Assembly: GCA_038897035.1 (NCBI GenBank)
Contig: JAWAXF010000003.1
Coordinates: 64,064 to 128,063 of the forward strand
DNA length: 64,000 nt
Direction of reading: 5' to 3'
From: Candidatus Bathyarchaeia archaeon
GTDB lineage: Archaea; Thermoproteota; Bathyarchaeia; Bathyarchaeales; DTEX01
Part shown: positions 13,669-61,313 of the stretch, piece by piece
How the letters are laid out: each line of letters opens with the position of its first letter
How positions within the stretch are numbered: the first letter of the stretch is position 1
Translations under genes and position numbers: made by a program
Notes under the pieces: model-generated
Databases searched by the model: none
The model's input: only the letters and a program-made list of their open reading frames with translations
Told to the model about the DNA's origin: nothing

Positions 13669-14003
13669 GGACGGCGGGTCTAAGGCGGGGGGCTAGGGGT
13701 CCCCTGAGAGGCAAATAGCCTCGACCGCAAACCCCCTATATGGCGGGCCGAAAGCCGAGGTAAGGCGCGTAAGGCCGCTGGCTCGGCCAGCCCTAAACAA
13801 TGAGTACCTGTCCTCTGGGGCTAGCGGTCGCGGAGCACCCCTCGTAGGAGGGGGTGTAACCGCGTTTGCCGGGCGAACCTGGCCAGGCCCGGGAGGGAGC
13901 AACCTAAGCCTGGACGCCTAGTGCTCAGAGGGGTGCGGGTACGAGTGGCGGGTTGGCTTGGGCCCGCGGATTCTGCGCGTCGAGCCCCGGTGACCCGCCG
14001 TCC
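13669..14003 (+). ncRNA. Signal recognition particle RNA (archaeal 7S RNA)
   Basis: A 12-bp terminal helix (GGACGGCGGGUC at 13669-13680 pairs with GACCCGCCGUCC at 13992-14003). The helix-8 core CCAGGCCCGGGAGGGAGCAAC matches the conserved SRP RNA motif. The block is far more GC-rich than its flanks. Ends are good to about 10 nt. Confidence 0.85.
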
Positions 14004-41863: not shown

Positions 41864-42454
41864 CTATCTTGGTTTGCATATGATCTCCTTAATTTTCCTT
41901 CTCTCCTCCTTCTTACCGAAGATTGTTTCTAGCTCAAGGAAATCCTTGCTTTTCATTGCCTCGATAACTATTGCGGTGTCTGCTCCTCCTCCCTTCTCAT
42001 AACCAAGTCTACCGGTTCCCCCAACAGCGATAACCTCTTCCTTTGGCTTTACAAAACCCATCTCCGTCGCAACTAATGCAACTTCAACACAAACCTTAAG
42101 CCCCTCACAGAACCTGCGCAGGGTATCCTGAACAACTTCTGGGAACTCATATTTGACATCCGAGGCATAACAGAAATTATGCCCCATCTGTTCTATTCTT
42201 CGTCGCAGGTCTTCTGGAAAACCTGGAAATTGAGGACCGCTTATGCTTACGATGGTTAACTTAATGTCGGTATCCTTAAAGATTTCTAAGGCTCTTTCAG
42301 CGGTGAACCCTGCTATGGAGGCCACAATAACATTTTTTATGCCCCTTTTTTGAGCTCTTTCCTTGGCTAATTTAAGTGTATGATCAGTATTATGCCTTCC
42401 GCCAGACTCAAAATAAACAATCTTCTCTACACTTATGCTGGCCAACTTCACCAC
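41864..42454 (-). CDS. Pyruvate kinase C-terminal (alpha/beta)-domain-like protein
   Basis: IVYFESGGRHNTDHTLKLAKERAQKRGIKNVIVAS...GGGADTAIVIEA...EIICKPR matches the stand-alone PK_C-like family pattern as I recall it. Confidence 0.55.
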   Translation of the reverse strand: MVKLASISVEKIVYFESGGRHNTDHTLKLAKERAQKRGIKNVIVASIAGFTAERALEIFKDTDIKLTIVSISGPQFPGFPEDLRRRIEQMGHNFCYASDVKYEFPEVVQDTLRRFCEGLKVCVEVALVATEMGFVKPKEEVIAVGGTGRLGYEKGGGADTAIVIEAMKSKDFLELETIFGKKEERRKIKEIICKPR

Positions 42455-42616
42455 CCCGAGCTAAATGTAATTATTGTAATTATTATTAATAACATTAACA
42501 TTAATTTAAGAATTTAGGCATCATTAGGGCGTGCTAATTAGTTTAGTTATGATATAATATGATCAATTGATCTTAGAGCATTGGTGTAAACTGGATGCGT
42601 GTAATTTTCCATAAAA

Positions 42617-42659
42617 TCGACTCTAATTCAATGAAAAGAAAAATTAATTTTAGAGTCGA
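42617..42659. promoter_or_regulatory. 10-bp perfect inverted repeat with 23-nt spacer
   Basis: TCGACTCTAA (42617-42626) and TTAGAGTCGA (42650-42659), in the divergent intergenic region. Confidence 0.4.
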
Positions 42660-42785
42660 AACGGTGTTAATAAAACAAAAGATAGTCTCTAGATCTGGAA
42701 AAACTACACATTCAATGTAATATACTTCGCACATTTTTGCTTAAGAAGGCTACTCATCCCGTAAATTTGTAAATGTTTTTAAGAC

Positions 42786-42806
42786 ATTATTGAGAATCTC
42801 AATAAT
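42786..42806. promoter_or_regulatory. 21-bp perfect palindrome (candidate operator)
   Basis: ATTATTGAGAATCTCAATAAT ends 19 nt upstream of the ATG at 42825. Confidence 0.45.
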
Positions 42807-42824
42807 TAAGGGGAATGAAAATTT

Positions 42825-43925
42825 ATGTCTATAGTGTTTTTCGGCGTCCCTTTAGATCCTGATGACAGGTATGAAAGATGCCTCATTAAACGTGCATATA
42901 TTTATGCTCTTATTGGAGGACATGTTCCAACGCCAAACTTTCTCACACCATATGAGGCGCTCATGCATTACCTACAAGAAATCTTTGCGAACCCAAAATT
43001 TGTTAGGTTAGGTGAGTTACCCGTGGACTCATGGCTCACACCTAAGCCAAGTTTTAAAGATCTCTCTTTAATAAACCCTGAGTCGTATTCCGCTTTTCTA
43101 GCAGCTGGTTGCTGTAGGGATTATGCAGAAATGGTTAACCTTTTTGTTAAAAGGAAAGTTCTTCCAAACAAATTTGTGATGATAGGTGTCGATCACTCCT
43201 CTACAGGTGGATGCCTAAAAGCTCTCTCAAGTTTTTATGGTATAGAAAACTTGGGTGTAATTATACTTGATTCCCATTTCGACGCCTTGCCCATAAGACT
43301 TAGAAAAAGTCTCTTCTCGTATTTTAAAGGGCATAATATCCCCACACTTATGCCTTACGCCAACAATGTTGAGGATGTCTTAGAATTAGACACCCCCGAA
43401 ACTTATAATAGCGGGAGCTTTCTCCGGTACTTGTTAGAGGAGAGAATCATTCTTCCCGAAAATACTATAATAGTTGGACCAGCAGATTATCCAGGTGAAG
43501 AGCTTGAAAAAATAGAGGATGAGAGCGTTAAAAAGTGGATTAATGAATATAGGCAATTTGAGAAGGAAGGCGTAACCATTTTACCACGTGTTAGATTAAG
43601 AAAAGAGGGAACAGGTCCCTTAAAGGCATTTTTAAGTAATCTAAGAGCACCCTATATTTATATATCTTTAGATATAGATGTAATGTCCTTTGAAGGGGTT
43701 TACGCTGCTAGAATATTAAACACGAGAGGGTTAGAACCAGAGGAAGTTTATAAAATACTTGAAATAGTCAGAGAATATATTATCCAGGAAGGAATTGATC
43801 TAATTGGCTTTGACTTAATGGAGATCGATGTTCACACAGCTAATGCCCATTTAAAGAATGGAACAGTTGACAGAACCTACGAAATATCCAAAATAATTAT
43901 AAAGAAGATAATAGACGTCATGTAG
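42825..43925 (+). CDS. Arginase/ureohydrolase-fold metallohydrolase, divergent
   Basis: FFGVPLD, GVDHSSTGG, ILDSHFDA, SLDIDV and DLMEIDV correspond to the binuclear-Mn ligand motifs (GGDHS, DAHxD, SxDxD, E-x-N/D). It has long insertions and an unknown substrate. Confidence 0.65.
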   Translation: MSIVFFGVPLDPDDRYERCLIKRAYIYALIGGHVPTPNFLTPYEALMHYLQEIFANPKFVRLGELPVDSWLTPKPSFKDLSLINPESYSAFLAAGCCRDYAEMVNLFVKRKVLPNKFVMIGVDHSSTGGCLKALSSFYGIENLGVIILDSHFDALPIRLRKSLFSYFKGHNIPTLMPYANNVEDVLELDTPETYNSGSFLRYLLEERIILPENTIIVGPADYPGEELEKIEDESVKKWINEYRQFEKEGVTILPRVRLRKEGTGPLKAFLSNLRAPYIYISLDIDVMSFEGVYAARILNTRGLEPEEVYKILEIVREYIIQEGIDLIGFDLMEIDVHTANAHLKNGTVDRTYEISKIIIKKIIDVM

Positions 43926-44016
43926 CATATTCTGTTAAAATTGACTGATTGCTTCAAAAAAATTTAAAGGGTAGTAGACTTTAGCTTCTACAACATAAGA
44001 GAGCTGGTGAAGTCAA

Positions 44017-44658
44017 TTGTCTTTAGACGAGCTTATTGAAACATTTGTTAATCTTGAGGAGGAAAGGGTGCTTAAGATTGTTAAGAGACTAATTGAGGAG
44101 GGTAAAGATCCATCTGAGATCTTTGAAGCATGTAGAAGAGCGGCAGAATTTATTGGAGAAAAATTTGAAAATGGAGAATACTTCCTCTCCGAGCTAGTAT
44201 ATGCAGGCGAGATCTTCAATAACATTATGAAAGTTGTTCTTCCGCTAATCAGAAGGGAGATTAAACCAGCGGGCACAATACTTTTAGGTACTGTTCAGGG
44301 AGACATACATGATATAGGCAAGAATATCTTTAAGGTGTTTGCAGAAGCGGCTGGCTTTAAAGTCATAGATATTGGCGTTGATGTCCCTCCAGAGAAATTT
44401 GTGGAAGCCGTAAAGGCATATAATCCTGATATTGTCGGAATGAGTGGGCTTTTAACTATAGCTTATGATGCGATGAAGAGGACTGTTGAATCTCTAAAAG
44501 AGGCAGGCTTGAGAGATAAAGTAAAGGTAATAATTGGAGGAGGCAGGGTAAACGAGGATATAAAAAGGTATACAGGGGCGGATGAATGGGCTGATAATGC
44601 GGTAATTGGCGTAAAGAAGTGTAAGCAGATGTTGGGACTAGGGGATAAGATAACATGA
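44017..44658 (+). CDS. Corrinoid (B12-binding) methyl-carrier protein, MtaC/MtbC-like
   Basis: TTG start. N-terminal helical cap domain, then GTVQGDIHDIGKNI (DxHxxG), MSGLLT (SxL) and IIGGG. Confidence 0.85.
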   Translation: MSLDELIETFVNLEEERVLKIVKRLIEEGKDPSEIFEACRRAAEFIGEKFENGEYFLSELVYAGEIFNNIMKVVLPLIRREIKPAGTILLGTVQGDIHDIGKNIFKVFAEAAGFKVIDIGVDVPPEKFVEAVKAYNPDIVGMSGLLTIAYDAMKRTVESLKEAGLRDKVKVIIGGGRVNEDIKRYTGADEWADNAVIGVKKCKQMLGLGDKIT

Positions 44659-45899
44659 GCGCCATGAAGGAGGTCAAACCAAAAAGTCCTGAGGAACTAG
44701 TAAGAGAGAGAAGGGAAAGAATAGAAAAAGCTATAGAGTTAAAAGAGCCCGACAAAGTACCCTTGGCATTATTTTCTAGCGGCGATGTCTTACGCAAATA
44801 TGTTACTGGCCACGAACTTTACTTCAATTACGAGAAGGCACGTGAAGCAGCCGTAAAATTTGTTACAAATTATCAAGTAGACATGTTTTCACCAATTTTA
44901 GGAGCTGAAGGCTTCATTTTTGCGTTAGCCTTCGCTGAGTACCCGGATATAGCTCCTGCTGTTAGAGTTTGGACTGGACCGATGCATGATATTCTTAAGG
45001 ATAAATTCGCGAAGTGGCCTGGCAGGGAACTTCCTGAGGACAGCATCCTTCAGTTTATTGGCGGGCAATTTATGGATGCAAAAGAGTATGCCAACCTCCC
45101 TGAGGATCCGATAACCTTTATAAACGAAGTTATTCTTCCAAGGTCATGCATAAACCTGGAGAAAATTGGGTCGCCGAAAGCTAATGCTGCGTTGGTTAAG
45201 CTTGGGGCTGAGGCAGCCAGAGCTCGTAATTTCTTAGTAAATCTTGCCATGGATTTGGCTAGGGTTGGGGTACCTTCCTTGCCTTTGACGTATGCCTATG
45301 CTCCGTTAGACTGTATAGGAGATTTTCTTAGAACCCCAACTGGTATCCTAATAGACATAAGGAGGCATCCAGATGATGTTAAGCGTGCATGTGAGGCTCT
45401 TGTGGAGCCGATAATTAAAGTCGCATTTGCTCTAAAGTCGGCTGGAGCGAAATATGCATCTATACCATTACACCTCAATGAATATTTATCTCCCAAGTTG
45501 TATAACGAGTTTTATTGGTCGACCCTTAAAAAGATTATAGTGGCCTTATATGAGCAAGGGATAAAATCGCTTGTATTTTTTGAGGGATGGCACGATGCTC
45601 ACCTTGAAACAATATTAGATTTACCTAAAGGGTGGGGCATAGCGAGATTTGAAAAGACGGATGTAAGGAAGGCTAAAAGAGTCCTGGCTGGGCACACTTG
45701 TATAATGGGAGGGGTTCCCTCATCATTACTGCTTGGAGCGACTCCAAGCAAAATTAGTGAATATATAAAAACTCTTCTAAAGGAAATGAAACTTGAAGGA
45801 GGATTTATACTAGCAAATGATGTTGACATTCCAAAAAATGTTCCGCCAGAAAATTTAAAAGCGTTAATAGAGGCGGTGGAAAAAGAGGGAAGGTACTAA
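44655..45899 (+). CDS. UroD/MtaA-superfamily corrinoid-dependent methyltransferase
   Basis: ATGA overlap with the corrinoid protein. N-terminal EPDKVPL and C-terminal GGVPSSLLLGATPSKI...GGFILANDVDIPKNVPPENLKALIEAV parallel the MtaA pattern (DKVP...GNVS...P.EN.KALV). At 414 aa it is longer than typical MtaA. Confidence 0.7.
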   Translation: MSAMKEVKPKSPEELVRERRERIEKAIELKEPDKVPLALFSSGDVLRKYVTGHELYFNYEKAREAAVKFVTNYQVDMFSPILGAEGFIFALAFAEYPDIAPAVRVWTGPMHDILKDKFAKWPGRELPEDSILQFIGGQFMDAKEYANLPEDPITFINEVILPRSCINLEKIGSPKANAALVKLGAEAARARNFLVNLAMDLARVGVPSLPLTYAYAPLDCIGDFLRTPTGILIDIRRHPDDVKRACEALVEPIIKVAFALKSAGAKYASIPLHLNEYLSPKLYNEFYWSTLKKIIVALYEQGIKSLVFFEGWHDAHLETILDLPKGWGIARFEKTDVRKAKRVLAGHTCIMGGVPSSLLLGATPSKISEYIKTLLKEMKLEGGFILANDVDIPKNVPPENLKALIEAVEKEGRY

Positions 45900-45991: not shown

Positions 45992-46774
45992 TTATGTGCC
46001 CTTGAATATCGGTTTTCTCTTTTCCAGAAAAGCAGCTACTCCCTCTCTAAAGTCTTCCGTAGTGGAGATTAAGGCTATGAGCGCAGCCTCGTATGCTAGC
46101 CCGGTTCTTATATCTAAGTTAAGGCTTGAATTAATTAGCAGCTTAGCAAGAGCCAACGCAAGTGGAGGTTTACTTATTATTTCTCTTGCGATTTCCTCAG
46201 CAGTCGTCATAAGCTTGTCTAATGGTACAACTTTATTGACGAGCCCCATATCCCCCGCCGTCTTCGCATCGATCATCCTACCGGTAAAAATAAGCTCTTT
46301 TGCAACTGCTTTACCAACTAGCTTAGGTAAACGTTGAGTGCCACCGCCACCTGGGAAGAATCCGAGATTTACTTCTGGCTGGCCGAGCATCGCGTTCTCA
46401 GATGCTATGCGTATATCGCATGCTAACGCAATCTCAAAACCACCTCCAAGAGCATAACCATTAATTGCCGCTATAGCGGGCTTGCTACCCTCCTCTATAG
46501 ATAATGTTATCTCCTGTAACAGCCTGACGGCTCTAAACATTCTGATTGGGCTTGCGTCCTTAATAGATTTAAGATCTAGACCGGCGCAAAATGCTCTATT
46601 TCCAGCACCAGTAATTATTATTGCTCTGACATTATCATCTTTATTCGCATCATTTACCTCAGAAAGGATTTCGAGCATCGTCTCTTCGTTTAAGGCATTA
46701 AGCACCTCTTGACGATTTATGGTTATAATCGCTACATTATCCCTTTTCTCGTAAAAAGTGTTTTTTAATTCCAT
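45992..46774 (-). CDS. Enoyl-CoA hydratase (crotonase family)
   Basis: GAGNRAFCAGLDL and INGYALGGGFEIALACD oxyanion-hole motifs. Confidence 0.88.
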   Translation of the reverse strand: MELKNTFYEKRDNVAIITINRQEVLNALNEETMLEILSEVNDANKDDNVRAIIITGAGNRAFCAGLDLKSIKDASPIRMFRAVRLLQEITLSIEEGSKPAIAAINGYALGGGFEIALACDIRIASENAMLGQPEVNLGFFPGGGGTQRLPKLVGKAVAKELIFTGRMIDAKTAGDMGLVNKVVPLDKLMTTAEEIAREIISKPPLALALAKLLINSSLNLDIRTGLAYEAALIALISTTEDFREGVAAFLEKRKPIFKGT

Positions 46775-46786
46775 GAAACGTTCCCT

Positions 46787-47659
46787 CTAAGTAATCTGAG
46801 ACCACTCATAGAAACCTTTACCAGTTTTTTTACCAAGGAAGCCAGCTCTAATCATTTGCCTTAAGAGCGGGCTCGGCCGGAACTTAGGATCCAATTCGCC
46901 TTCTAAGACTTCAAGTATTGCTAGGGCCGTATCTAAGCCAATATAATCTAATAGCTTTAATGGCCCCATCGGCCAGTTTAATCCGAGCTCACATGCCTTA
47001 TCTATATCATCTCTTTCAGCAACCCCTTCCCAAAGAATATGTAGAGCCTCATTTAATGCTGCCATAAGTATCCTATTAACTATGAAGCCAACGCAATCTT
47101 TCTTGACGATCACGGGCTCCTTTCCCATCCTTCTGGCAGCCTCAGCAACGGTATTTATTGTCTCGTCCGACGTTCTTGCGCCTCGAATTATTTCTACAAG
47201 CCTCATTATTTGGGGCGGGTTAAAGAAGTGCATCCCGCAGAATCTTTCAGGCCTACTTATTGACGAGGCGAGTTCCGTTATACTTAGCGAAGAAGTATTC
47301 GTGGCGAGTATAGCTTCCGGCTTAGCAATTCTATCAACTTGAGAGAATATATTCTTCTTTGACTGAATGTCTTCAGCAATTGTCTCAATTATTAGATCTG
47401 CATCAAAAATAGCCTTATCTAAATCTGAAAGTGGTATGACGCGTATTCTATTTAAGGTCTCCTTAATTTGATCCTCAGTTAATAAGCCCTTTTTATGGAA
47501 CTTCTGCAAGCTATCTTTTATCATTGCCATTGCTTTATCGAGAGTTGATGGACTCCTGCTTAACATAACTACATCGAATTTTGCTACTTGAGCAGCCACT
47601 TGGGCTATACCATGTCCCATTAAACCAGCTCCAATAACAGCCACCTTTTTAATCTCCAA
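46787..47659 (-). CDS. hbd: 3-hydroxyacyl/3-hydroxybutyryl-CoA dehydrogenase
   Basis: VIGAGLMGHGIA Rossmann motif, NTSSLS, HFFNP and a C-terminal dimerisation domain. Confidence 0.88.
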   Translation of the reverse strand: MEIKKVAVIGAGLMGHGIAQVAAQVAKFDVVMLSRSPSTLDKAMAMIKDSLQKFHKKGLLTEDQIKETLNRIRVIPLSDLDKAIFDADLIIETIAEDIQSKKNIFSQVDRIAKPEAILATNTSSLSITELASSISRPERFCGMHFFNPPQIMRLVEIIRGARTSDETINTVAEAARRMGKEPVIVKKDCVGFIVNRILMAALNEALHILWEGVAERDDIDKACELGLNWPMGPLKLLDYIGLDTALAILEVLEGELDPKFRPSPLLRQMIRAGFLGKKTGKGFYEWSQIT

Positions 47660-49486: not shown

Positions 49487-50785
49487 TTATGGTAGTGGCC
49501 AGATCGGCTTCTCTACTGGAGCTTTGATCCACGATGGGACGTAAACTATATTCATGTCCCATTTTCCATCCTTCATTACGAATTGCGCTAGCGTGTTTGT
49601 TGTCTCGCATATGTGGTCCGGCCTGAATTTGACCTGACCCACAGGCATTTCTATATCCACTTTGGCGAACGCATCCCTTATTGCTGTTCTATCTAGGGTG
49701 CCTGCAACCTTTATGGCTTCGACTGCAACGTAGAAGGCGGTATATGCGATGCCTTCCATATGTGTCAAGCTCATGTCCCCGAAGTATTTCTGCCAGTTCT
49801 CCTTAAACCATTCATTTCCTTTGAATGGCAAAGTATACCACCAGTGAGTTTCAGCTGTTATTCCTTCAGCTAGCTCTCTACCTAAAGCCTCTGCCTCCGG
49901 GATCTTCATACATCTGCCGACACAGAACATTAATGGCTTAAAACCGAATGCGGCACATTGGCGTCTGAAAGCAATCCAGTCTGCTGGCAGAGTGTTAGCT
50001 ATGACCACGTTAACGCCTTCTTCCTTGAATTTTAGTATAATGGGTGTGAAATCAGTTATGCCTGGAGGATGCAGTCCTGGGTCAACTATCATGAAACCTG
50101 CTTCTTGTAGTTTCGGAGTTACTTTCTTTTTAGCGTCGCGTCCGCTTACATCGTCAGAGTAGAGTACTCCTATCTTCTTAATCTGGTCTTTCCACTGGCT
50201 GAGCCACTCTTTCCAAAGCATTCCGTAAATAGTATAGTTAAAGCTACAATGCCATGTCCATGTAAACTTGTTTCCGGGGATTGATGGGAGAGCGTTCATC
50301 GCGATCGTATCTACTGGGCTCATACTCAGTACTGGCTGTCCACCTACTTTCTCAGCGCTAATTACTGCTGGAACTGTAAATGGTGGTGGTGCACCAATGA
50401 ATATAACGAGATGCGCGACTTTCTCCGTTACGGCTTTTGTTGCAAGCTCAACATACCTGGAAGTTGAGCTCTCCCCATCATAGAATATCAGCTCTATTGG
50501 GTGATATTTGCCAGTCCCTGATAAATATACTCCACCCTTCGCATTAATTTCTGTTGCGAGAGCGGTCATCAAAAGTCTATGCCGTATACCTTCAGGCGCG
50601 TAACCTCCAGACAAGTTCAATACTACTGCAATCTTAATGGGTTCGCCTTTTTCTGTTGGGCGCACTTGCGTTTGAGAATAATAATAGTAGACCACAGCGG
50701 CGGCAGCGATGATTATAATAACTATTGCTATTAGAATAGCTTGCATTTTGCTAACAGCTTTTTTATTCCTCATATATTCCTTCAT
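49487..50785 (-). CDS. Liv-type (PBP type I) ABC substrate-binding protein, membrane-anchored
   Basis: N-terminal TM anchor (ILIAIVIIIIAAAAVVYYYY) followed by a ~390-aa LivJ/K-like two-lobe pattern. Confidence 0.8.
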   Translation of the reverse strand: MKEYMRNKKAVSKMQAILIAIVIIIIAAAAVVYYYYSQTQVRPTEKGEPIKIAVVLNLSGGYAPEGIRHRLLMTALATEINAKGGVYLSGTGKYHPIELIFYDGESSTSRYVELATKAVTEKVAHLVIFIGAPPPFTVPAVISAEKVGGQPVLSMSPVDTIAMNALPSIPGNKFTWTWHCSFNYTIYGMLWKEWLSQWKDQIKKIGVLYSDDVSGRDAKKKVTPKLQEAGFMIVDPGLHPPGITDFTPIILKFKEEGVNVVIANTLPADWIAFRRQCAAFGFKPLMFCVGRCMKIPEAEALGRELAEGITAETHWWYTLPFKGNEWFKENWQKYFGDMSLTHMEGIAYTAFYVAVEAIKVAGTLDRTAIRDAFAKVDIEMPVGQVKFRPDHICETTNTLAQFVMKDGKWDMNIVYVPSWIKAPVEKPIWPLP

Positions 50786-51339: not shown

Positions 51340-52530
51340 ATGCCTGTGGTGGCTGGCGTCCTTGGAAGTCGCAGAAGGGTTGCATTATACTTTAACACTC
51401 CTGAAAAGAACCTTGCCTTAAAGATGTTGGAGGCTATACGTAATCCGATTCCTCCGATATATGTTAGAGACGCGCCATGCCAAGAAGTTGTGATTGATAG
51501 GAATATTGACTTAACCGCGCAGCTTCCCATACCAACAATGTCATATGATTGCGCTGGCCCTACTATAACTATGGGTCTAATACTTGGGATTGATCCAGAA
51601 ACAGGTCAAAGAGACGTAACTTTTCATAGGATGTTTGTCATAGCTCCAGATACGCTCACTGCATTAATGGGACCTATTAGACATATAAAGCAAATGCAAT
51701 TAAAAGCGGAGGCTAAAGGTGAACCCTTCCCCATATCCATAAATATAGGCATAGACCCCTTTAGCGCGATTTCAGCGGGTATTTCGTCACCGACAGGCAC
51801 AGGTTTAGATGAGCTCGCTGTTGCAGGAGCATTAAAAGGCTCCCCTATAGAATTGGTGAAATGCAAGACCATTAATTGTGAGGCCATAGCCAACGCTGAA
51901 ATAGTGCTTGAGGCTGAAATACAACCAAATGTAAAAATTATGGAAGATACGGTTTCAGAGAAGAAGGGCTGGTCTATGCCTGAAATGGCTGGATATGTGG
52001 GGAGGGCAGCTTTAGCCCAAGTTGTTAAGGTGAAGGCAATAACCTGCAGGATGAAACCTATCTACCAGACTTTAGTCACCCCTGGTGAAGAACACAATGT
52101 TATTATGGGTATTCCTGGAGAAGCTGAAATCCTAAACGCTGCTTGGAAAGCGGGATATCGTGATTTACTTACAGACGTACATCTTTTACCAGCTGGTGGG
52201 GGGAAGCTAATTGCTGCGCTTCAGGTTAGAAAGAGAAGCACGGATGATGACTTAGAAGTTAGGAACCTTGCCTTAATCGCGCTTGCAACGAGACTTGAAA
52301 TGCGATACGTGATTATAGTGGATGAGGATGTAGATATACGTGATCCCATGGACTTATGGTGGGCCTTTACAACAAGATTTAATCCAAAAGAAGACCTTAT
52401 AGTAATTGATCAATGCAAAGTCTGGCCTGGCTTAGCGGAACATATACGCATAACTAAGGCGATTCTCGACTGCACAGTACCATGGGATAAAAAAGAGGAG
52501 ATGCGAAGACCTCGCTGGAAAAGAGACTAG
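51340..52530 (+). CDS. UbiD-family (prFMN-dependent) decarboxylase/carboxylase; start unresolved
   Basis: The first canonical start is at 51340. The same frame stays open back to 51097 and encodes a UbiD-like N-terminus (EISDLRSTLAVAEANGELIRIKKPVNVKLEL...PIVLFENV). See findings. Confidence 0.75.
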   Translation: MPVVAGVLGSRRRVALYFNTPEKNLALKMLEAIRNPIPPIYVRDAPCQEVVIDRNIDLTAQLPIPTMSYDCAGPTITMGLILGIDPETGQRDVTFHRMFVIAPDTLTALMGPIRHIKQMQLKAEAKGEPFPISINIGIDPFSAISAGISSPTGTGLDELAVAGALKGSPIELVKCKTINCEAIANAEIVLEAEIQPNVKIMEDTVSEKKGWSMPEMAGYVGRAALAQVVKVKAITCRMKPIYQTLVTPGEEHNVIMGIPGEAEILNAAWKAGYRDLLTDVHLLPAGGGKLIAALQVRKRSTDDDLEVRNLALIALATRLEMRYVIIVDEDVDIRDPMDLWWAFTTRFNPKEDLIVIDQCKVWPGLAEHIRITKAILDCTVPWDKKEEMRRPRWKRD

Positions 52531-55236: not shown

Positions 55237-57816
55237 CTATTTCATTATGAAGAACTTTGGCATTTCTTCTGGTTTGGCTTTGTATACTTTGCATAGGAGG
55301 GCTCTGTCGTACCATGCTCCTGTCTTTTCGTCTAAAGTTGCTGGGTCATCTTCAGTTAAGATATTAGCATTTGATATTAAGGCTCCCCCCAGCCATGGCT
55401 CCTCTGCTGGAAGCTCTGGGTACCACCATGAAGCCTCAACATTTACGACTCTAGGGTGAATGTGAGCGCCTATTCGGGCCCTTTGCAATATTCTTCCTCT
55501 TCTAGTTTCAACCCATACCCAGTCACCGTCCGTTATGCCAAGTTTTCTCGCCGTTTCATAGTGAATGTCGCATAGAGGCCACGGATGTTGCTCTCTGAAG
55601 TTCATTCCCCACTGGCGGTACTCTGAGTGGAACATCGGCCTAAACCTTCCGCCAGTCGTTAATATAAGTGGATATTCCTCAGCTAATTCAGGGGTTCTAA
55701 CAGGGCTCTCGAATGGTTCCTCATACTCGGGAAGGGGATCGTATCCCAAGTCTTCTAGTATTGTGCTCCAGATTTCAGCCCTTCTGCTTGGCGTAGCAAA
55801 GCCTCTTGGCTTACCTGTTCTTGGATCGATCAGAGCATACGCTCTATCATCTTCTCTTCTCCATCCCGGTGTCTCTGAAATAATGAAGCCTCTTCTTGCA
55901 GCCTCTTTCAATGTTAAACCTATCCTTGCAAGGCGGTATTCAACAACTTCTCTTTGGTTTTTCCATGGGAAGTATTCGCCTAATCCAAGGCGTACCGCAA
56001 GACCTCTGAAGAGGTCATAGTCACTGTGTCGATCTCCGAGAGGTTCTATAGCATTTTCGCCTACAGCCATCATCTCCTGATAATCTTCCCAATTGCAACA
56101 GTATGGTACTTCTAGAGATTTGGCTGCCGCTGGTAGCACGTAGTCTGCTAAGGCTGCTGTAGGTGTCATCCAGTAGTCTTGAACAACATGTAACTCTAAA
56201 TTAGGACTCTTCAAAGCCTTAATAACTAGCTTGGTATTCGGAGCCCACATAACCGGGTTTCCACTCCAGGTTATCAGCGCTTTTATCGGATATGGTTTTC
56301 CAGTAAGTATTGCCCGCCATATAAGCGGCACTGATGTAACCATGGTATGTCCTCCAGCATTTTGAGGTATACCCCATGTCCTATGATAATATTCATTATA
56401 ACGGTCATATGCTGGCCAAGCCATAGCCTTATGCTGGTCTGCGCCTAGCTGTTTAAGCTTTGTTTCAGGCTTTATGTATTCATGCCCCTCAAGCTCAGAT
56501 TCTCTAACCGCAAGTTTTCCTCCGATAATCGGGCCGGGTCTAGAACGGTATAAACGTATGCCTCCTCTAACATCATAGTTTCCTGTTATTAAATGAATTA
56601 TCGTCATGGCTATGTGGTTATCTGAAGTATTCTTTCCAGCTTGGTAGAGTGAGACACCCGCGCCTATTCCTCCGGGTCTTCTAGCCCAGAACATTCTAGC
56701 TGTTTCAACGATCTTTTCAGCTGGGATCCATGTTATTTCTTCGACTTTTTCAGGAGTATATTTACTTACCCGCTCGATAAGAAGCTGCCAAACTGTTTTA
56801 CATTCAACTTCCCGTCCATCTAAAAGCCTAACTTTGTATTTTCCTGTTAAAGCTGGCTGGGCATCTTTGGGCCTGTACTCCATGCTTTCAGAAACCCAAA
56901 TGGCCGGGGCGTTCTCACGAACATTCCAGATAACAAAGTTCTCACGTGAACCGCCAGCTATCAAGTCGCTTTCCCGGAGAGTCTTCCTGGTGTCTAAGCG
57001 CACAAGAAACGGAGCATTAGTCCATCCTTCCACAAATTCTTTGTCGTATAACCCCTCATCAATCAAAATTTTAATCCAAGCTAAAAGCAAGGCAGCATCA
57101 GTGCCCGGCCTAATCTGAAGCCACATATCTGCCTCTCTAGCAGTTTCAGTACACCTCGGATCGACACAAACTAAGAAAATGTTCTTACGGTTAAGTATAA
57201 TACTCTGCCACAAAGTAATAAAAGACTCTTTAGGATTAAAGCCCATAGATACAAAATATCTTGCACCATCACTTACGTCTGGGAATTCAACCGAGAACGC
57301 CCCTGTCATACATTGTTCTACAGCGCTTCCAGGGTGGTGACATATGGTGCTTGGGTCCCCCAAGTTAAAGGGGTTTCCAAAAAGATACGCGAATCTTGAT
57401 CTTGCCCAAAAAACGTCTGAACGCATTGTTCCTTCAATGAAAGCAAGACATTCGGGACCATATTTAGCTTTTAGTTCCTTGAGCTTCTCGGCTATTTCGT
57501 CCAAAGCTTGCTCGTAGGGTATGCGTTGCCATTTGCCCTCTCCCCGTTCGCCCACGCGCTTCAAGGCGTACATAAGCTGGTCGGGATGCTCTAACCACTT
57601 TACAGGAAAGTTGGGTATAATAGCCCTGTCAGGACAAACTAGCCGTTCCTGCACCAAAGGATCTGGATGAAGAGCCCAAAGTTTTGTCATTGGATGTTCA
57701 GGATTTCCCTCGACCTTAATGATTTTGCCAGTGTTCCTGTCCACGTATGCAAGAAGCCCGCAGTGCATAAAGCAGCCGCCAGCGCCATTGTGGCATATTA
57801 TCCTTCTAACCTCCAT
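55237..57816 (-). CDS. Bis-MGD molybdo/tungstopterin oxidoreductase catalytic subunit, cytoplasmic
   Basis: MopB architecture: GKIIKVEGNPEHP, IRPGTDAAL and a C-terminal GDWVWVETRRG beta-barrel. Variant N-terminal Cys cluster CHNGAGGCFMHCG...C. No twin-arginine signal. Start taken at MEVRRIICHNG; the track ORF starts at 57894. Confidence 0.85.
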   Translation of the reverse strand: MEVRRIICHNGAGGCFMHCGLLAYVDRNTGKIIKVEGNPEHPMTKLWALHPDPLVQERLVCPDRAIIPNFPVKWLEHPDQLMYALKRVGERGEGKWQRIPYEQALDEIAEKLKELKAKYGPECLAFIEGTMRSDVFWARSRFAYLFGNPFNLGDPSTICHHPGSAVEQCMTGAFSVEFPDVSDGARYFVSMGFNPKESFITLWQSIILNRKNIFLVCVDPRCTETAREADMWLQIRPGTDAALLLAWIKILIDEGLYDKEFVEGWTNAPFLVRLDTRKTLRESDLIAGGSRENFVIWNVRENAPAIWVSESMEYRPKDAQPALTGKYKVRLLDGREVECKTVWQLLIERVSKYTPEKVEEITWIPAEKIVETARMFWARRPGGIGAGVSLYQAGKNTSDNHIAMTIIHLITGNYDVRGGIRLYRSRPGPIIGGKLAVRESELEGHEYIKPETKLKQLGADQHKAMAWPAYDRYNEYYHRTWGIPQNAGGHTMVTSVPLIWRAILTGKPYPIKALITWSGNPVMWAPNTKLVIKALKSPNLELHVVQDYWMTPTAALADYVLPAAAKSLEVPYCCNWEDYQEMMAVGENAIEPLGDRHSDYDLFRGLAVRLGLGEYFPWKNQREVVEYRLARIGLTLKEAARRGFIISETPGWRREDDRAYALIDPRTGKPRGFATPSRRAEIWSTILEDLGYDPLPEYEEPFESPVRTPELAEEYPLILTTGGRFRPMFHSEYRQWGMNFREQHPWPLCDIHYETARKLGITDGDWVWVETRRGRILQRARIGAHIHPRVVNVEASWWYPELPAEEPWLGGALISNANILTEDDPATLDEKTGAWYDRALLCKVYKAKPEEMPKFFIMK

Positions 57817-57974
57817 ATCCCTGCTCAATGAAGGCACCCCTATTTTTACAAAGTAAAAGTAGAAACGCTTGCTTTTATTTATCTTTTTCATCAACGAGAA
57901 TTTGTCATCAAGTTATATCTTATAAAATTTAAAAACACTTTTACCAAAAAATCCCGAATCTATAAAGTGCTAAG

Positions 57975-58937
57975 TCATGGTCCACGCATTTTTCTTCTAG
58001 TGAGGAAGGCGTGTACATATCCCATGATACCTCTGGGGAAGACCAGTACCATGGCCACAATTATTACTCCATAAACCAGCATAGCGAGTCCTGGAAATTC
58101 GACGAGAAAAGTTTGTCTCAGCCAAACAACGAAAAACGCACCTATGATGGGGCCAAGAATTGTTCGCACCCCTCCAAAAACTGTAGCTGTTATTGAAGAT
58201 AGAGTCCAGTAGAAGGCGAAAGCTGCTGCTGGTGAGATAAAACCTGAATAGATAAAGTAGAGACTTCCTGAAATTCCTGCAAAGAAGGATGATATAACCC
58301 AGCATAAAAGCTTGGTTTTGAAGACATCAACGCCGTAAGATTCTGCAGCTATATCATCATCTGCTATTGCTTTAAGCCTTAACCCTACCCTACTTTGCAC
58401 AATGATATATGCAACAAATATTGAAGCAATAGCGATCACAAGAGATATATAGTATAAATCATAAACTGTTACGTGCGCCACTATGGGCATTCCATAACCT
58501 CCACCAACATATGACCAGCCTTGGAACCAGTAGAAAAGAACAGAAGCGCTTACTAGGGTGCCCATTGCGAAATACAACCCCCTCATTTTTATAATCAGGA
58601 AGGATGTTGCTAAAGCTAACAAAACGCACATGGTTCCGCTGATAAACATGCTAACTAGAAGGTGCAAACCCCAAAGTGTACACGCTATTGCCGTTATGTA
58701 CCCTCCAAAACCTACAAACCCATGAAAACCAAGGGCTAGCATCCCTGAATAGCCCGAGAGAAGATTGTAAACTTCAGCCATAGCCGTGTACGTAAAGAAG
58801 AGAAAGAAAAGGGTTATCCAATCAGGTCCTAACCCTAATGGTACTAGAAGCGCGACTATGATTCCTCCAATAATTAAGTAAAATCTAATATCTTTAGAGA
58901 GCTTTATATTTTCAAAGCTAACAGTATTCTTCTTCAT
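57975..58937 (-). CDS. livM: Branched-chain-type ABC transporter permease
   Basis: 320 aa polytopic membrane protein. 4-nt overlap with livH. Confidence 0.85.
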   Translation of the reverse strand: MKKNTVSFENIKLSKDIRFYLIIGGIIVALLVPLGLGPDWITLFFLFFTYTAMAEVYNLLSGYSGMLALGFHGFVGFGGYITAIACTLWGLHLLVSMFISGTMCVLLALATSFLIIKMRGLYFAMGTLVSASVLFYWFQGWSYVGGGYGMPIVAHVTVYDLYYISLVIAIASIFVAYIIVQSRVGLRLKAIADDDIAAESYGVDVFKTKLLCWVISSFFAGISGSLYFIYSGFISPAAAFAFYWTLSSITATVFGGVRTILGPIIGAFFVVWLRQTFLVEFPGLAMLVYGVIIVAMVLVFPRGIMGYVHAFLTRRKMRGP

Positions 58938-59812
58938 ACTTCATACCCAAATATTCCTTCTGGTTTCAAGTAAAGCACTATTAACGTTATAAGATTTTGT
59001 ATAAGGAAAGCATATGCTATTCCTATATAATATGAAGCCAATGCTTGGACAAGACCCACAATAACGCCTCCGACTAGAGCGCCTCGAATACTACCTATGC
59101 CGCCAAGAATTATGACGGAAAAAGCCATACCTAGGTAAATGTGCCCGTAGCTGGGTTCAAAAGCGTAGGTCAACCCTACGAATATTCCTCCTAATGCGGC
59201 AAGTACCGCACCTATGCCGAAAGTGATTGCATACATCCTCTTGTCATTTACCCCAAAAAGGTTAACAGTTATAGGATCCTCAGACGTAGCTCTAATAGCC
59301 CTGCCTATGAAAGTATATTTTAGGAAAATATAGACGAAAATCATTGCAGCCATTGCAGCGATAAAGTCTATTAAATATATAAAAGGTAAGCTAATACCAA
59401 ACAACGTTATACTTCTACCTGCGTAGCTTGGAGCGTAAGGCGTTAAGCTTTTTGCATCAGGACCATAAAGTATGAGTAGAAAGTTTTCGACAATTAAACC
59501 TATCCCTAATATTAATGGTATACGGCCTGCAGGTTCACGCAACATCACCCTATTTATTAGTGAATACTGTAGTGCTAGACCTATACAAAAAACTACAGGA
59601 AGCACTACAAGCGCGGACAGCAGGGGGTCAAGCCTCAATAATGTAACTGTGCTAAAACTAAGATAACAGCCCAAAACAACCATTTGCCCATGAGATACAT
59701 TCATAGTATACCTAATGCCCGTAAAAATTAAGGATAAACCTAAACCCACAATTCCATACACGCCGCCCACAAAAATACCCATTAATATTACCTCAATCAT
59801 ATACATCACCAA
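58934..59812 (-). CDS. livH: Branched-chain-type ABC transporter permease
   Basis: 292 aa polytopic membrane protein of the LivH pattern. Confidence 0.85.
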   Translation of the reverse strand: MVMYMIEVILMGIFVGGVYGIVGLGLSLIFTGIRYTMNVSHGQMVVLGCYLSFSTVTLLRLDPLLSALVVLPVVFCIGLALQYSLINRVMLREPAGRIPLILGIGLIVENFLLILYGPDAKSLTPYAPSYAGRSITLFGISLPFIYLIDFIAAMAAMIFVYIFLKYTFIGRAIRATSEDPITVNLFGVNDKRMYAITFGIGAVLAALGGIFVGLTYAFEPSYGHIYLGMAFSVIILGGIGSIRGALVGGVIVGLVQALASYYIGIAYAFLIQNLITLIVLYLKPEGIFGYEV

Positions 59813-59871
59813 TGATTTACTGTATATATGTAGAAGTAGAAAATGTTACAATATATGTTAATCATATCACA

Positions 59872-60594
59872 TTAAACCCCAAAGTAAGCTTTCATTAATT
59901 CCTTGCTTTTAAGTATTTCTTTTGATCTACCTTCCAGAGTTATTCGCCCGGACCCCATTATATATGCGTAATCGCTTATTTCAAGGCTTCTTTTAATGTT
60001 CTCATCTACAAGAAGAATTGTTATTCCTAGTTGCTTAATTTCATCAACCTTTTTGTATATGTCCTCTCTAACCTTTGGAGCTAAACCTAAGGTTACCTCA
60101 TCTAACATTAACAATTTTGGATCAGCCATCAAGCTTCTTGCAATAGCAAGCATTTGCTGTTCTCCCCCACTTAAAGTTCCGGCTTTTTGGTTTTCTCGTT
60201 CGGCAAGCACCGGAAAAAGTTCATAAATTTCCTTAAGCTTTTGAGTCATATTTTTCCTTTTTGTCTTTGGATAGCAACCCATCAGCAAATTCTCCTTAAC
60301 CGTCATTCGTGTAAAAAGTTTTCGACCCTCAGGTACCTGAATCACTCCAAGATCAGCTATACGCCAAGGAGGAAGATGATCAATTCTTTCACCCTTAAAT
60401 TTAATGGTACCTTTTTTAGGGTGGATTAGCCCGGAAATTGTTTTGATAAGCGTTGATTTTCCCGCACCATTTGGTCCTACTAAAGCAACCGTGGTCCTCT
60501 CATGTATTTTCATAGAAATATCTCGTAAAACGTCTATGTATTCGTAAGAGACGTCAATGTTATTTATTTCTAAAAGCACGTCCTCCGAGTTCAT
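59872..60594 (-). CDS. livF: ABC transporter ATP-binding protein
   Basis: Walker A GPNGAGKST, signature LSGGEQQ and Walker B LLMLDE. Confidence 0.9.
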   Translation of the reverse strand: MNSEDVLLEINNIDVSYEYIDVLRDISMKIHERTTVALVGPNGAGKSTLIKTISGLIHPKKGTIKFKGERIDHLPPWRIADLGVIQVPEGRKLFTRMTVKENLLMGCYPKTKRKNMTQKLKEIYELFPVLAERENQKAGTLSGGEQQMLAIARSLMADPKLLMLDEVTLGLAPKVREDIYKKVDEIKQLGITILLVDENIKRSLEISDYAYIMGSGRITLEGRSKEILKSKELMKAYFGV

Positions 60595-60599
60595 GCGGT

Positions 60600-61313
60600 T
60601 TATCCCCCCAAATATATGTCAACGACTTCTTTGCTACTTAGCACATCTTTTGGCGCGCCCTCAAACAACTTCATACCACGATGCATAAACATTACTCTAT
60701 CAGCAACTCGAGTAATAAGCTCCATCCTATGCTCCACCAAAACTATTGTTATTCCCGTGCCAGAAACTTTTTTAATAACCTCTGCTAAGTAATCAATTTC
60801 CTCCTCTCGCATTCCAGCCGCAGGTTCATCTAAAAGTAGAAGCTTGGGCTTACATGCCAGAGCTCTTGCTATCTCAAGTCTTTTTAATTGAAAAGGAAGC
60901 AAGGATCCGGCGGGAACATCCTTTAAGTTTTCTATTTTTAACAATTTTAACACTTCCATATCATACTCAAGAGCATCCGCATACTTCATGTTTTGACTTG
61001 AAATTGAAGCAACCAGCAAATTCTCCAATACTGTGAGTCTCGGGAATGGACGAGGAATTTGATAGGCTCTTGCCATCCCCATTCTACAAATTTTATGGGG
61101 GGGTAAGCCTTTAATGGAACGCCCTAAAAATTCTATCTTCCCAGCATCTGGTAAATATATGCCCGTTATAACATTGAAAAGGGTTGTTTTGCCAGAGCCA
61201 TTCGGCCCTATTATCCCAAAAATTTCGTTCTTATAAACTTCAAATGTTACATTTGACAAAGCATATAAGCCGCCAAAGCGTTTAGTTATACCTTCCCCTC
61301 TTAAGATGACCAT
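60600..61313 (-). CDS. livG: ABC transporter ATP-binding protein
   Basis: Walker A GPNGSGKTT and Walker B LLLLDEPAAG. Confidence 0.9.
   Translation of the reverse strand: MVILRGEGITKRFGGLYALSNVTFEVYKNEIFGIIGPNGSGKTTLFNVITGIYLPDAGKIEFLGRSIKGLPPHKICRMGMARAYQIPRPFPRLTVLENLLVASISSQNMKYADALEYDMEVLKLLKIENLKDVPAGSLLPFQLKRLEIARALACKPKLLLLDEPAAGMREEEIDYLAEVIKKVSGTGITIVLVEHRMELITRVADRVMFMHRGMKLFEGAPKDVLSSKEVVDIYLGG

Follow-up and report, generated by a model that had tools for sequence, protein, structure and literature searches.

The 64,000-nt stretch of DNA analysed here (contig JAWAXF010000003.1, positions 64,064 to 128,063; hereafter the window) carries three adjacent genes on its forward strand, encoding an arginase-fold protein, a corrinoid protein (CP) and a long methyltransferase of the uroporphyrinogen decarboxylase (UroD) superfamily. 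The explanation that we favour on balance, with somewhat more confidence than doubt, is that the CP and the methyltransferase make up one half of an Mto-type system for corrinoid-dependent methyl transfer, to which a probably active ureohydrolase is loosely linked. The arginase-fold open reading frame (ORF; 366 aa, ATG start, Pfam Arginase) occupies positions 42825-43925, the CP ORF (213 aa, TTG start, Pfam B12-binding_2 and B12-binding) 44017-44658, and the methyltransferase ORF (414 aa, ATG start, Pfam URO-D) 44655-45899. The original prediction had described the three genes at these positions, together with 91 nt between the arginase-fold stop and the CP start, an ATGA (44655-44658) common to the CP stop and the methyltransferase start, and intact CP motifs, all of which were verified in the sequence. 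The three ORFs are real genes, and each has numerous homologues. The host, from a hot spring, is archaeal: an archaeal signal recognition particle RNA was found at 13672-14000 of the window, and 100%-identical database proteins carry the name Candidatus Bathyarchaeia archaeon. In sediments, Bathyarchaeia count among the most abundant archaea, and their use of methylated and lignin-derived compounds is under active study.

The family placement of the 414-aa protein is the firmest element of this explanation. Pfam URO-D aligned with it at 3e-25 over the C-terminal half only (residues 226-410), and comparison with the PDB gave one strong match, covering residues 18-414 (E 2.4e-69), to CdmB of Acetobacterium dehalogenans (9rui), a chloromethane-specific substrate:corrinoid methyltransferase (MT1) described in 2026 (PMC13222342). 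With reference sequences taken, for the methyltransferase and the CP alike, from the supplementary tables of PMC13222342, BLASTP gave identities of 41-44% over ~380 aa to four MtoB sequences from Archaeoglobus fulgidus and Methermicoccus shengliensis, 35% to CdmB, 33% to MtvB, 29% to MecE (C-terminal part only), 25% to CmuA and 23% to Bacillus subtilis UroD (E 0.006). In a tree built by neighbour joining (100 bootstraps, B. subtilis UroD as the root), the clade of the window protein was sister to the characterised MtoB proteins (bootstrap 87), then to CdmB (91) and then to MtvB (68), at a distance from UroD, CmuA, MecE and the MtaA-like clade. Members of this clade come from Bathyarchaeia, Methanomethylicia, Desulfurococcaceae, Nezhaarchaeales, Ignisphaera, Tepidanaerobacter/Thermosediminibacter and Atribacteria. 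Because the match to CdmB is full-length, because of the identity to MtoB and because of the sister-clade placement, the 414-aa protein is, by homology, an MT1. The phylogeny that had been proposed as a check thus bears out the likeness, drawn in the original prediction, to the MT1/CP pairs of O-demethylases.

It is very improbable that the protein is instead a true uroporphyrinogen decarboxylase or an MtaA-type second methyltransferase (MT2; methylcobamide:thiol methyltransferase), and this alternative is largely refuted. Speaking for it are the Pfam URO-D assignment and an H-x-C motif (H347, C349) that is invariant in the MT1 clade. However, the hemE model (TIGR01464) gives 25 bits where its cutoff is 303, the MtaA/CmuA model (TIGR01463) 44 bits against 235 and the MtaA equivalog 25.5 bits against 400, B. 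subtilis UroD is just 23% identical, and the tree groups the protein with MtoB, CdmB and MtvB, far from UroD, CmuA, MecE and the separate MtaA-like clade. Both identities were therefore rejected, and the MtaA-type methyl transfer that had been offered as a second possibility falls with them; nor does the protein cluster with true uroporphyrinogen decarboxylases, an outcome that had been named as fatal to the proposal. More generally, all curated NCBIfam models score far under their cutoffs for the three proteins, so that none of these is orthologous to a named enzyme.

The CP consists of a cap and a Rossmann domain (Pfam B12-binding_2, PF02607, 5.3e-12; B12-binding, PF02310, 3.2e-25), its translation contains the motifs DIHDIG (DxHxxG), SGL (SxL) and GGG, and it is 41% identical to CdmC. 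Its best NCBIfam models are methyltransferase-cognate corrinoid proteins, all under cutoff (pyl_corrinoid, 146 bits against 215). Together, the CP and MT1 would supply the methyl-donor side of an Mto/Cdm/Mtv-like system: MT1 would bind a small methylated substrate, and the Co(I) of the translationally coupled CP would receive its methyl group. The MT2 step to tetrahydromethanopterin or tetrahydrofolate (THF) and the ATP-dependent reactivation would be supplied from outside the 64-kb window. That the window encodes neither an MT2 nor an activase had been noted from the start, and three approaches, i.e. tblastn with published references, locally built hidden Markov models (HMMs) and Pfam on the large ORFs, agreed in finding no MT2 (pterin-binding or MtrH/MtoA-like) and no RACo- or RamA-type activase in it. 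The same searches of the window found no MtaB/MttB-like gene either; this absence, which had been held to leave the system without a substrate methyltransferase, is real but beside the point, the UroD-type protein being itself the MT1. Searching the window by tblastn with CdmA, MtvA, AcsE, MtoA and the A. dehalogenans activase yielded nothing at E<0.01. Two weak matches were set aside, one to MtvA at 1392-1562, which belongs to a HisA/HisF-family gene, and one to an activase at 2584-2844, which belongs to a TtuA-like PP-loop protein.

The neighbourhoods of homologous genes provide some of these components. Among 80 metagenomic loci of the MT1 clade, a CP gene lies directly upstream in 58, and within 3 kb there is a RACo-type activase in 17, a pterin-binding MT2 in nine and an MtoA/MtrH-like MT2 in seven. 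Because of these CP, activase and MT2 neighbours, the clade belongs to canonical four-component systems. Its more distant members (48-56% identical) lie in complete clusters together with a CP, a RACo-type activase and an MT2, and the members that are at least 70% identical (the Bathyarchaeia group) have the CP-MT1 pair only. A 'bacterial-type MT1' has been reported in 31 of 297 Bathyarchaeia metagenome-assembled genomes (MAGs), with no recognisable activase in such genomes, and B. tardum grows methoxydotrophically (PMC10989822, PMC10477458). In Tepidanaerobacter syntrophicus (L013:6601-10582; numbers with L denote individual loci), a 52%-identical MT1 homologue has an MFS transporter on each side and no adjacent CP, in a neighbourhood of sigma-54 regulators and amino-acid/sulfur lyases.

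Of the characterised systems, MtoB/MtoC of M. shengliensis and A. fulgidus shares with the window a UroD-superfamily MT1 of ~410 aa, an adjacent cognate CP, an archaeal host and the sister position in the tree, and an MtoA-like MT2 and a RACo activase are found near more distant members of the window clade. It differs in that the window MT1 lies in a separate clade known from sequence, in that neither MtoA (MT2) nor MtoD (activase) is encoded in the 64 kb, and in that the mto clusters have no arginase-fold gene, whereas the window locus has one upstream. With CdmBCA of A. dehalogenans (9rui; PMC13222342) the homology is full-length and includes the N-terminal extensions between the first beta-strands; CdmB, however, is haloalkane-specific and paired with the pterin-type MT2 CdmA, whereas the window MT1 is closer to MtoB and the window lacks a CdmA. 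The vanillate O-demethylase MtvB/MtvC of Moorella thermoacetica likewise has an MT1 of the same superclade partnered with a CP, but it is more remote in sequence, bacterial and THF-dependent, with MtvA adjacent; as cited in PMC10477458, it is reported to be functional without a dedicated activase gene. The MtgB/MtgC/MtgA lignin O-demethylase of Ca. Baizosediminiarchaeum ligniniphilus (PMC10989822) resembles the window system in coming from Bathyarchaeia, in corrinoid-dependent methyl transfer and in that no activase can be recognised. MtgB, however, is a protein of ~300 aa without homology to known MT1s (PMC10989822), unlike the window MT1, which is of the 'bacterial-type' UroD-family kind.

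The likeliest methyl donor would be a methoxylated aromatic compound, as with MtoB, which would fit the VdcC-like UbiD, enoyl-CoA hydratase (ECH), 3-hydroxyacyl-CoA dehydrogenase (3HCDH) and LIV-type transport genes that, with the trio, would form a catabolic island. The UbiD-family decarboxylase gene (51340..52530, plus strand; Pfam UbiD) has VdcC, a hydroxyarylic acid decarboxylase subunit, as its best NCBIfam match (240 bits, under the cutoff of 650), and is a hint of phenolic-acid metabolism. The ECH (45992-46774) and 3HCDH (46787-47659) genes, both identified with Pfam and NCBIfam, are on the minus strand and convergent with the trio. A methoxylated donor is not to be assumed, however, because CdmB is haloalkane-specific, being inactive on methoxyaromatics although MtoB is its closest characterised relative (PMC13222342). 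MT1 might thus be no O-demethylase at all and might take methyl groups from chloromethane or other haloalkanes, like CdmB (35% identical), or from methylated thiols. The position of the window clade as a separate, uncharacterised sister of MtoB would leave room for this, as would the setting of the Tepidanaerobacter homologue, whose MFS transporter and lyase neighbours are not aromatic genes. We nevertheless consider it quite unlikely, since the identity to MtoB exceeds that to CdmB, methoxydotrophy is documented in Bathyarchaeia, and the VdcC-like decarboxylase and the beta-oxidation-type genes lie nearby.

The arginase-fold protein matches Pfam Arginase (5.5e-17) through residues 95-335 only, which correspond to profile positions 68-256. 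In an alignment of 89 family sequences, residues H124, D149, H151, D153, D283, D285 and E333 are invariant; that is, the six metal ligands (H; DxHxD; DxD) are all kept in the protein, and E333 is the guanidinium-binding Glu. R296 is invariant as well, and there is a conserved N-terminal region with W70, L71 and P75. Relative to canonical ureohydrolases the protein has an N-terminal extension of ~95 aa and an insertion around residues 155-200, in keeping with the original prediction of an enzyme with a complete binuclear-metal site and large insertions. The structural model that had been called for, made with AlphaFold2, is ureohydrolase-like and confident (predicted local distance difference test score, pLDDT, 94.2; predicted TM score 0.93), the pLDDT dropping to ~60 at residues 171-190. 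Foldseek aligned the model about equally well with arginases, proclavaminate amidinohydrolase, formiminoglutamase, guanidinopropionase, agmatinase and metformin hydrolase (probability 1.00, TM 0.61-0.72 when target-normalised, 14-19% identity). At the sequence level no PDB entry matched below E 0.1 (best E 0.16), and RocF, SpeB and HutG identities were excluded, the scores falling far under the equivalog cutoffs (rocF 25 bits against 228, agmatinase 23 against 174, hutG 20 against 229). A profile search of 1.84 billion representatives retrieved 163 clusters at E<=1e-30, behind which ordinary ureohydrolases formed a long tail; these ~160 family clusters are clusters at 50% identity.

Judged on these comparisons, the arginase-fold family is a small, deep and uncharacterised clade of ureohydrolases. 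It shares the fold, the six metal ligands and the guanidinium-binding Glu with the characterised arginase, agmatinase, guanidinobutyrase/guanidinopropionase, proclavaminate amidinohydrolase, formiminoglutamase and metformin hydrolase, from which the window protein differs in being equidistant at 14-19% identity, in the conserved extension of ~95 aa (with an SWLTPKP motif), in the internal insertion and in the presence of the invariant Arg296 where the others have the usual GTP loop. The conserved ligands and the model suggest that the protein probably keeps a metal-dependent amidino/guanidino hydrolase chemistry; a probably active enzyme of this kind would cleave a guanidino compound and set free urea or a similar amidino fragment. 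The possibility that the protein is a novel MT1 or an activase was considered very unlikely, as it is without a redox/ATPase domain and its deep active-site cleft is ill-suited to corrinoid docking. Candidate substrates that were considered are creatine/sarcosine, 4-guanidinobutyrate, argininic acid, formiminoglutamate (with the hydroxyglutarate pathway), methionine-derived methylthio acids and phenolic conjugates of agmatine. As deposited at NCBI, the protein of this gene (P0001) has 300 aa, is 100% identical over 82% of the ORF and starts 66 codons downstream. The deposited annotation probably truncates the gene, because the missing N-terminal segment (window 42825-43022) carries the family-invariant residues F6, G7, D11, K22, Y43 and G63.

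The linkage between the hydrolase and the CP-MT1 pair was assessed in related genomes, in whose fetched loci ORFs were called mechanically. The trio is found in the relatives L001-L003, L009/L010, L014, L015, L100 and L177, with proteins 71-81% identical, a gap of 37 nt between the arginase-fold and CP genes and, in several cases, a LIV-type ABC transporter upstream. Because these relatives also have the same flanking genes as the window, the occurrences appear to represent essentially one evolutionary event in one narrow Bathyarchaeia lineage. Synteny in relatives, on which the original prediction had been made to depend, is thus kept in seven relatives of this lineage but is absent beside about ten orthologous CP-MT1 pairs: orthologues with 70-76% identity occur without the arginase-fold gene in L011/L012, L097 and L102-L110, and the gene is present in only one of the 80 MT1-clade loci. 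The locus L176 shows the opposite, with an intact arginase-fold gene (377 aa, 75% identity) and intact ECH and 3HCDH genes, the CP-MT1 pair being reduced to a remnant of ~450 nt (L176:2815-3588) in which the first 45 CP codons run into what is left, frameshifted, of the last ~100 MT codons. The trio is thus ancestral in its lineage, with CP-MT1 having been lost once and the hydrolase kept. Because L176 has lost CP-MT1 yet kept the hydrolase, coupling between the two is not obligate.

ECH and 3HCDH are the syntenic backbone beside the arginase-fold gene, even where CP-MT1 is gone (L001, L009, L176). Since the hydrolase and CP-MT1 each occur without the other, the linkage would be loose or absent. 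The placement of a hydrolase before CP-MT1 would be an arrangement specific to one Bathyarchaeia lineage, whose two modules probably belong to one broad catabolic niche without depending on each other. Going further, the adjacency could be a pure coincidence, with the hydrolase acting with ECH and 3HCDH in amino-acid/hydroxy-acid catabolism and CP-MT1 being a mobile two-gene cassette. CP-MT1 cassettes do lie elsewhere in genomes without the hydrolase, the hydrolase does remain with ECH/3HCDH once the cassette has decayed, and the nearest outgroups of the Bathyarchaeia hydrolases adjoin a flavoprotein gene (P0007) or an aconitase-like pair (P0006) with no CP. Still, coincidence is an unlikely explanation, as a chance landing is made less probable by the enrichment of UroD and corrinoid neighbours found beside the arginase clade in four other phyla.

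This enrichment emerged from a scan of species-representative genomes that gave 80 arginase-clade loci, only those fitting one peptide pattern having been kept, with neighbours assigned by locally built ad hoc HMMs and spot checks with Pfam. The hosts are Asgard archaea, Methanofastidiosum, Methanomethylicia, Hadarchaeota, Archaeoglobales, Desulfobacterota, Actinomycetota and two Bathyarchaeia. Of 79 loci, 15 have a UroD-family gene no more than two genes away from the hydrolase; among genes at least five positions off, the count is 4 of 608 (odds ratio 8.2, Fisher p 3e-5, shared ancestry being ignored). In 13 of the 79 species-level loci, from four phyla, the clade is directly beside an MtaA-like UroD gene, with or without a CP, namely in Asgard archaea (L030, L036, L042), Archaeoglobales (L083), Desulfobacterota (L035, L072, L078, L079, L084, L092, L060) and Actinomycetota (L086, L091). 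As a rule these loci also encode a VAO/PCMH-like flavoprotein and an HdrD/TfrB-like iron-sulfur protein. The hydrolases with methyltransferase neighbours are spread over four separate clades of the hydrolase tree. Outside Bathyarchaeia the neighbouring UroD genes form a single, MtaA-like clade (PDB 4ay7, E 5e-71; MtaA_Meth 305-390 bits, cutoff 400), to which the Bathyarchaeia MT1 is not orthologous in the tree. The family concerned is that of MtaA, which with MtaC makes up the methylcobamide:CoM methyltransferase and methanol corrinoid protein; unlike MtaA/MtaC, however, the arginase-clade loci have no MtaB and are found in non-methanogens.

The layouts vary. In Desulfobacterota the order is Aldedh-flavoprotein-CCG-MFS-MtaA-like-hydrolase-GntR; in Asgard archaea the MtaA-like gene and a CP are divergent from the hydrolase; and in a deltaproteobacterium a CP, a RACo-flavoprotein fusion and a UroD gene precede it. 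In an Archaeoglobales MAG, 13 nt separate the hydrolase gene from an upstream gene for a 596-aa MtaA-MtaC-like fusion (L083:8174-9964; 389.6 bits, narrowly under the cutoff of 400 for methanogen MtaA), and no MtaB was found near this fusion. In Actinomycetota (L086, L091) genes overlap at the hydrolase: the end of an 801-aa fusion of Fer4_8/CCG domains with a full MtaA-like UroD (L086:7270-9675) overlaps the hydrolase start, and this fusion looks like a Rosetta-stone link between the iron-sulfur (FeS) protein and the methyltransferase. In L060 (5079-8531) there is a 1150-aa RACo-type activase with an inserted Fer4_20 and Pyr_redox_2 (glutamate-synthase-beta-like) module; the insert could serve as a built-in domain for taking electrons from NAD(P)H.

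Over half of the loci have, no farther than 5 kb from the hydrolase, the commonest partners of the arginase clade, an FAD_binding_4 flavoprotein (~477 aa) and a Fer4/CCG FeS protein (~413 aa), usually in the operon order flavoprotein-CCG-hydrolase; the Asgard loci have a divergent layout, with HgdA/HgdB-like dehydratase subunits and a BcrAD-type ATPase. The nearest solved relatives of the flavoprotein are p-cresol methylhydroxylase and vanillyl-alcohol/eugenol oxidases (the VAO/PCMH group) and not GlcD, and the CCG protein is nearest to TfrB/HdrD. The pair is thus less probably glycolate oxidase GlcD/GlcF or D-lactate dehydrogenase, since comparison with the PDB, including that of the C-terminal half alone, favours VAO/PCMH. 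Local HMMs found neither the VAO/PCMH-like flavoprotein nor the CCG protein in the 64-kb window. A cluster that recurs in Archaeoglobales (L083:5478-11008), Desulfobacterota (L072:2344-12106) and Asgard archaea (L030:1784-10735) unites the flavoprotein and the CCG protein with the hydrolase and an MtaA-like methyltransferase, to which a CP may be added, often with an aldehyde dehydrogenase, an MFS transporter or HgdAB and a BcrAD ATPase. No description of this cluster was found in the literature, and the same holds for the pairing of an arginase-fold protein with a corrinoid methyltransferase, which the original prediction had presented as having no described precedent known to it.

These data bear on the alternative that the trio is one functional operon, in which the hydrolase acts on the same molecule as MT1 and could either free or unmask the methyl donor from a guanidino/amidino conjugate or process the demethylated product; if so, the trio would represent a new substrate class for corrinoid methyltransferases. 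The genes are on the same strand, 91 nt apart here and 37 nt apart in relatives, the trio is kept across the 71-81% identical relatives, L177 included, and in Asgard archaea, Archaeoglobales, Desulfobacterota and Actinomycetota the arginase clade lies beside MtaA-like UroD genes with the enrichment given above. The methyltransferases in Bathyarchaeia and in the other phyla being non-orthologous, this looks like displacement within a conserved partnership. The suggestion in the original prediction that the hydrolase may prepare or process the methyl donor or acceptor gains indirect support from the recurrence of MtaA-like and corrinoid genes beside the clade in those phyla. However, the hydrolase of L176 is intact after the decay of CP-MT1, a hydrolase gene is found in just one of 80 MT1-clade loci, the window lacks the commonest family partners, i.e. 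the flavoprotein and the CCG protein, the CP may have an internal promoter of its own, and all Bathyarchaeia cases are one evolutionary event. We therefore regard a single operon as rather unlikely, though deserving of real weight, and functional coupling of hydrolase and methyltransferase in general remains, on the sequences compared, a minority prospect of about the same standing.

Several points nevertheless weigh against the preferred reading of an Mto-type half-system with a loosely linked hydrolase. The enrichment of the arginase clade beside UroD-family methyltransferases argues for more than coincidence, and the adjacency would not be random because in four other phyla the clade recurs, independently, beside corrinoid methyltransferases of another family. 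The 37-nt gap in relatives suggests co-transcription of the arginase-fold and CP genes. Halomethanes (as for CdmB), methylthiols and other methyl ethers are possible donors for MT1, and the trees are neighbour-joining trees with modest sampling. A broader and more speculative proposal, which we hold to be improbable, is that the arginase clade is an unrecognised recurrent component of anaerobic clusters for corrinoid methyl transfer and phenol-type oxidation in Asgard archaea, Archaeoglobales, Bathyarchaeia, Desulfobacterota and Actinomycetota, where it would hydrolyse a guanidino/amidino group on the methyl-donor compound or its product; the Bathyarchaeia trio would then be a variant in which an MtoB-like MT1 and CP replace the MtaA-like partner. 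If this were true, the clade would define a new substrate class or an accessory step for corrinoid methyltransferases. Whichever explanation holds, the locus contributes a sister clade of MtoB that is well delimited and uncharacterised. The flavoprotein/HdrD-like pair is usually labelled 'GlcD-HdrD' in archaeal genomics papers; the substrate of the arginase clade could point to a new pathway by which guanidino or methylated compounds are used anaerobically and could revise the reading of 'GlcD-HdrD' in methyl-reducing methanogens and Asgard archaea.

The intergenic regions were also inspected. The arginase-fold gene is preceded by an AT-rich region of 370 nt (42455..42824, plus strand), read directly from the sequence, which contains a TATA-like TTTTTAAG at ~42776-42783 and a GGGG Shine-Dalgarno-like run at 42810-42813; it is a putative promoter region, and its equivalent position in relatives is occupied by a five-gene LIV-type ABC transporter. 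The lowest G+C content of the window (0.37, against 0.42-0.53 elsewhere) is found at 42001-44000, which spans this region and the arginase-fold gene. The 91-nt spacer between the arginase-fold and CP genes (43926..44016, plus strand) was aligned with five relatives, which revealed a conserved A/T box, CAAAAAAATTTAAAG, at 43955-43969 and a conserved GGTGA at 44006-44010, six nt before the TTG start of the CP. The CAAAAAWTTTTAAA box and GGTGA upstream of the CP start, conserved among relatives, may be an internal archaeal TATA and Shine-Dalgarno element, respectively; in the relatives, the A/T box falls at the 3′ end of a longer arginase-fold ORF, which it overlaps.

Further genes surround the trio. 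Divergent from it, a protein consisting only of a pyruvate-kinase C-terminal-like domain (PK_C, Pfam 2.7e-07) is encoded at 41864..42454 on the minus strand. PK_C-only proteins (~190 aa) are close to CP-MT1 in two arrangements, with the arginase-fold gene and without it, the latter in L011/L012 (L011:13642-14223). The LIV/Urt-type ABC transporter is split in the window, its substrate-binding protein being encoded at 49487-50785 and its permeases and ATPases at 57975-61313, and a complete one lies directly upstream of the arginase-fold gene in relatives. The alignment of the UbiD ORF starts at profile position ~60, and its N-terminus is possibly missing through a wrong start, a frameshift or a true truncation. 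An 885-aa molybdopterin oxidoreductase is encoded at 55237-57894, between the two parts of the LIV/Urt transporter.

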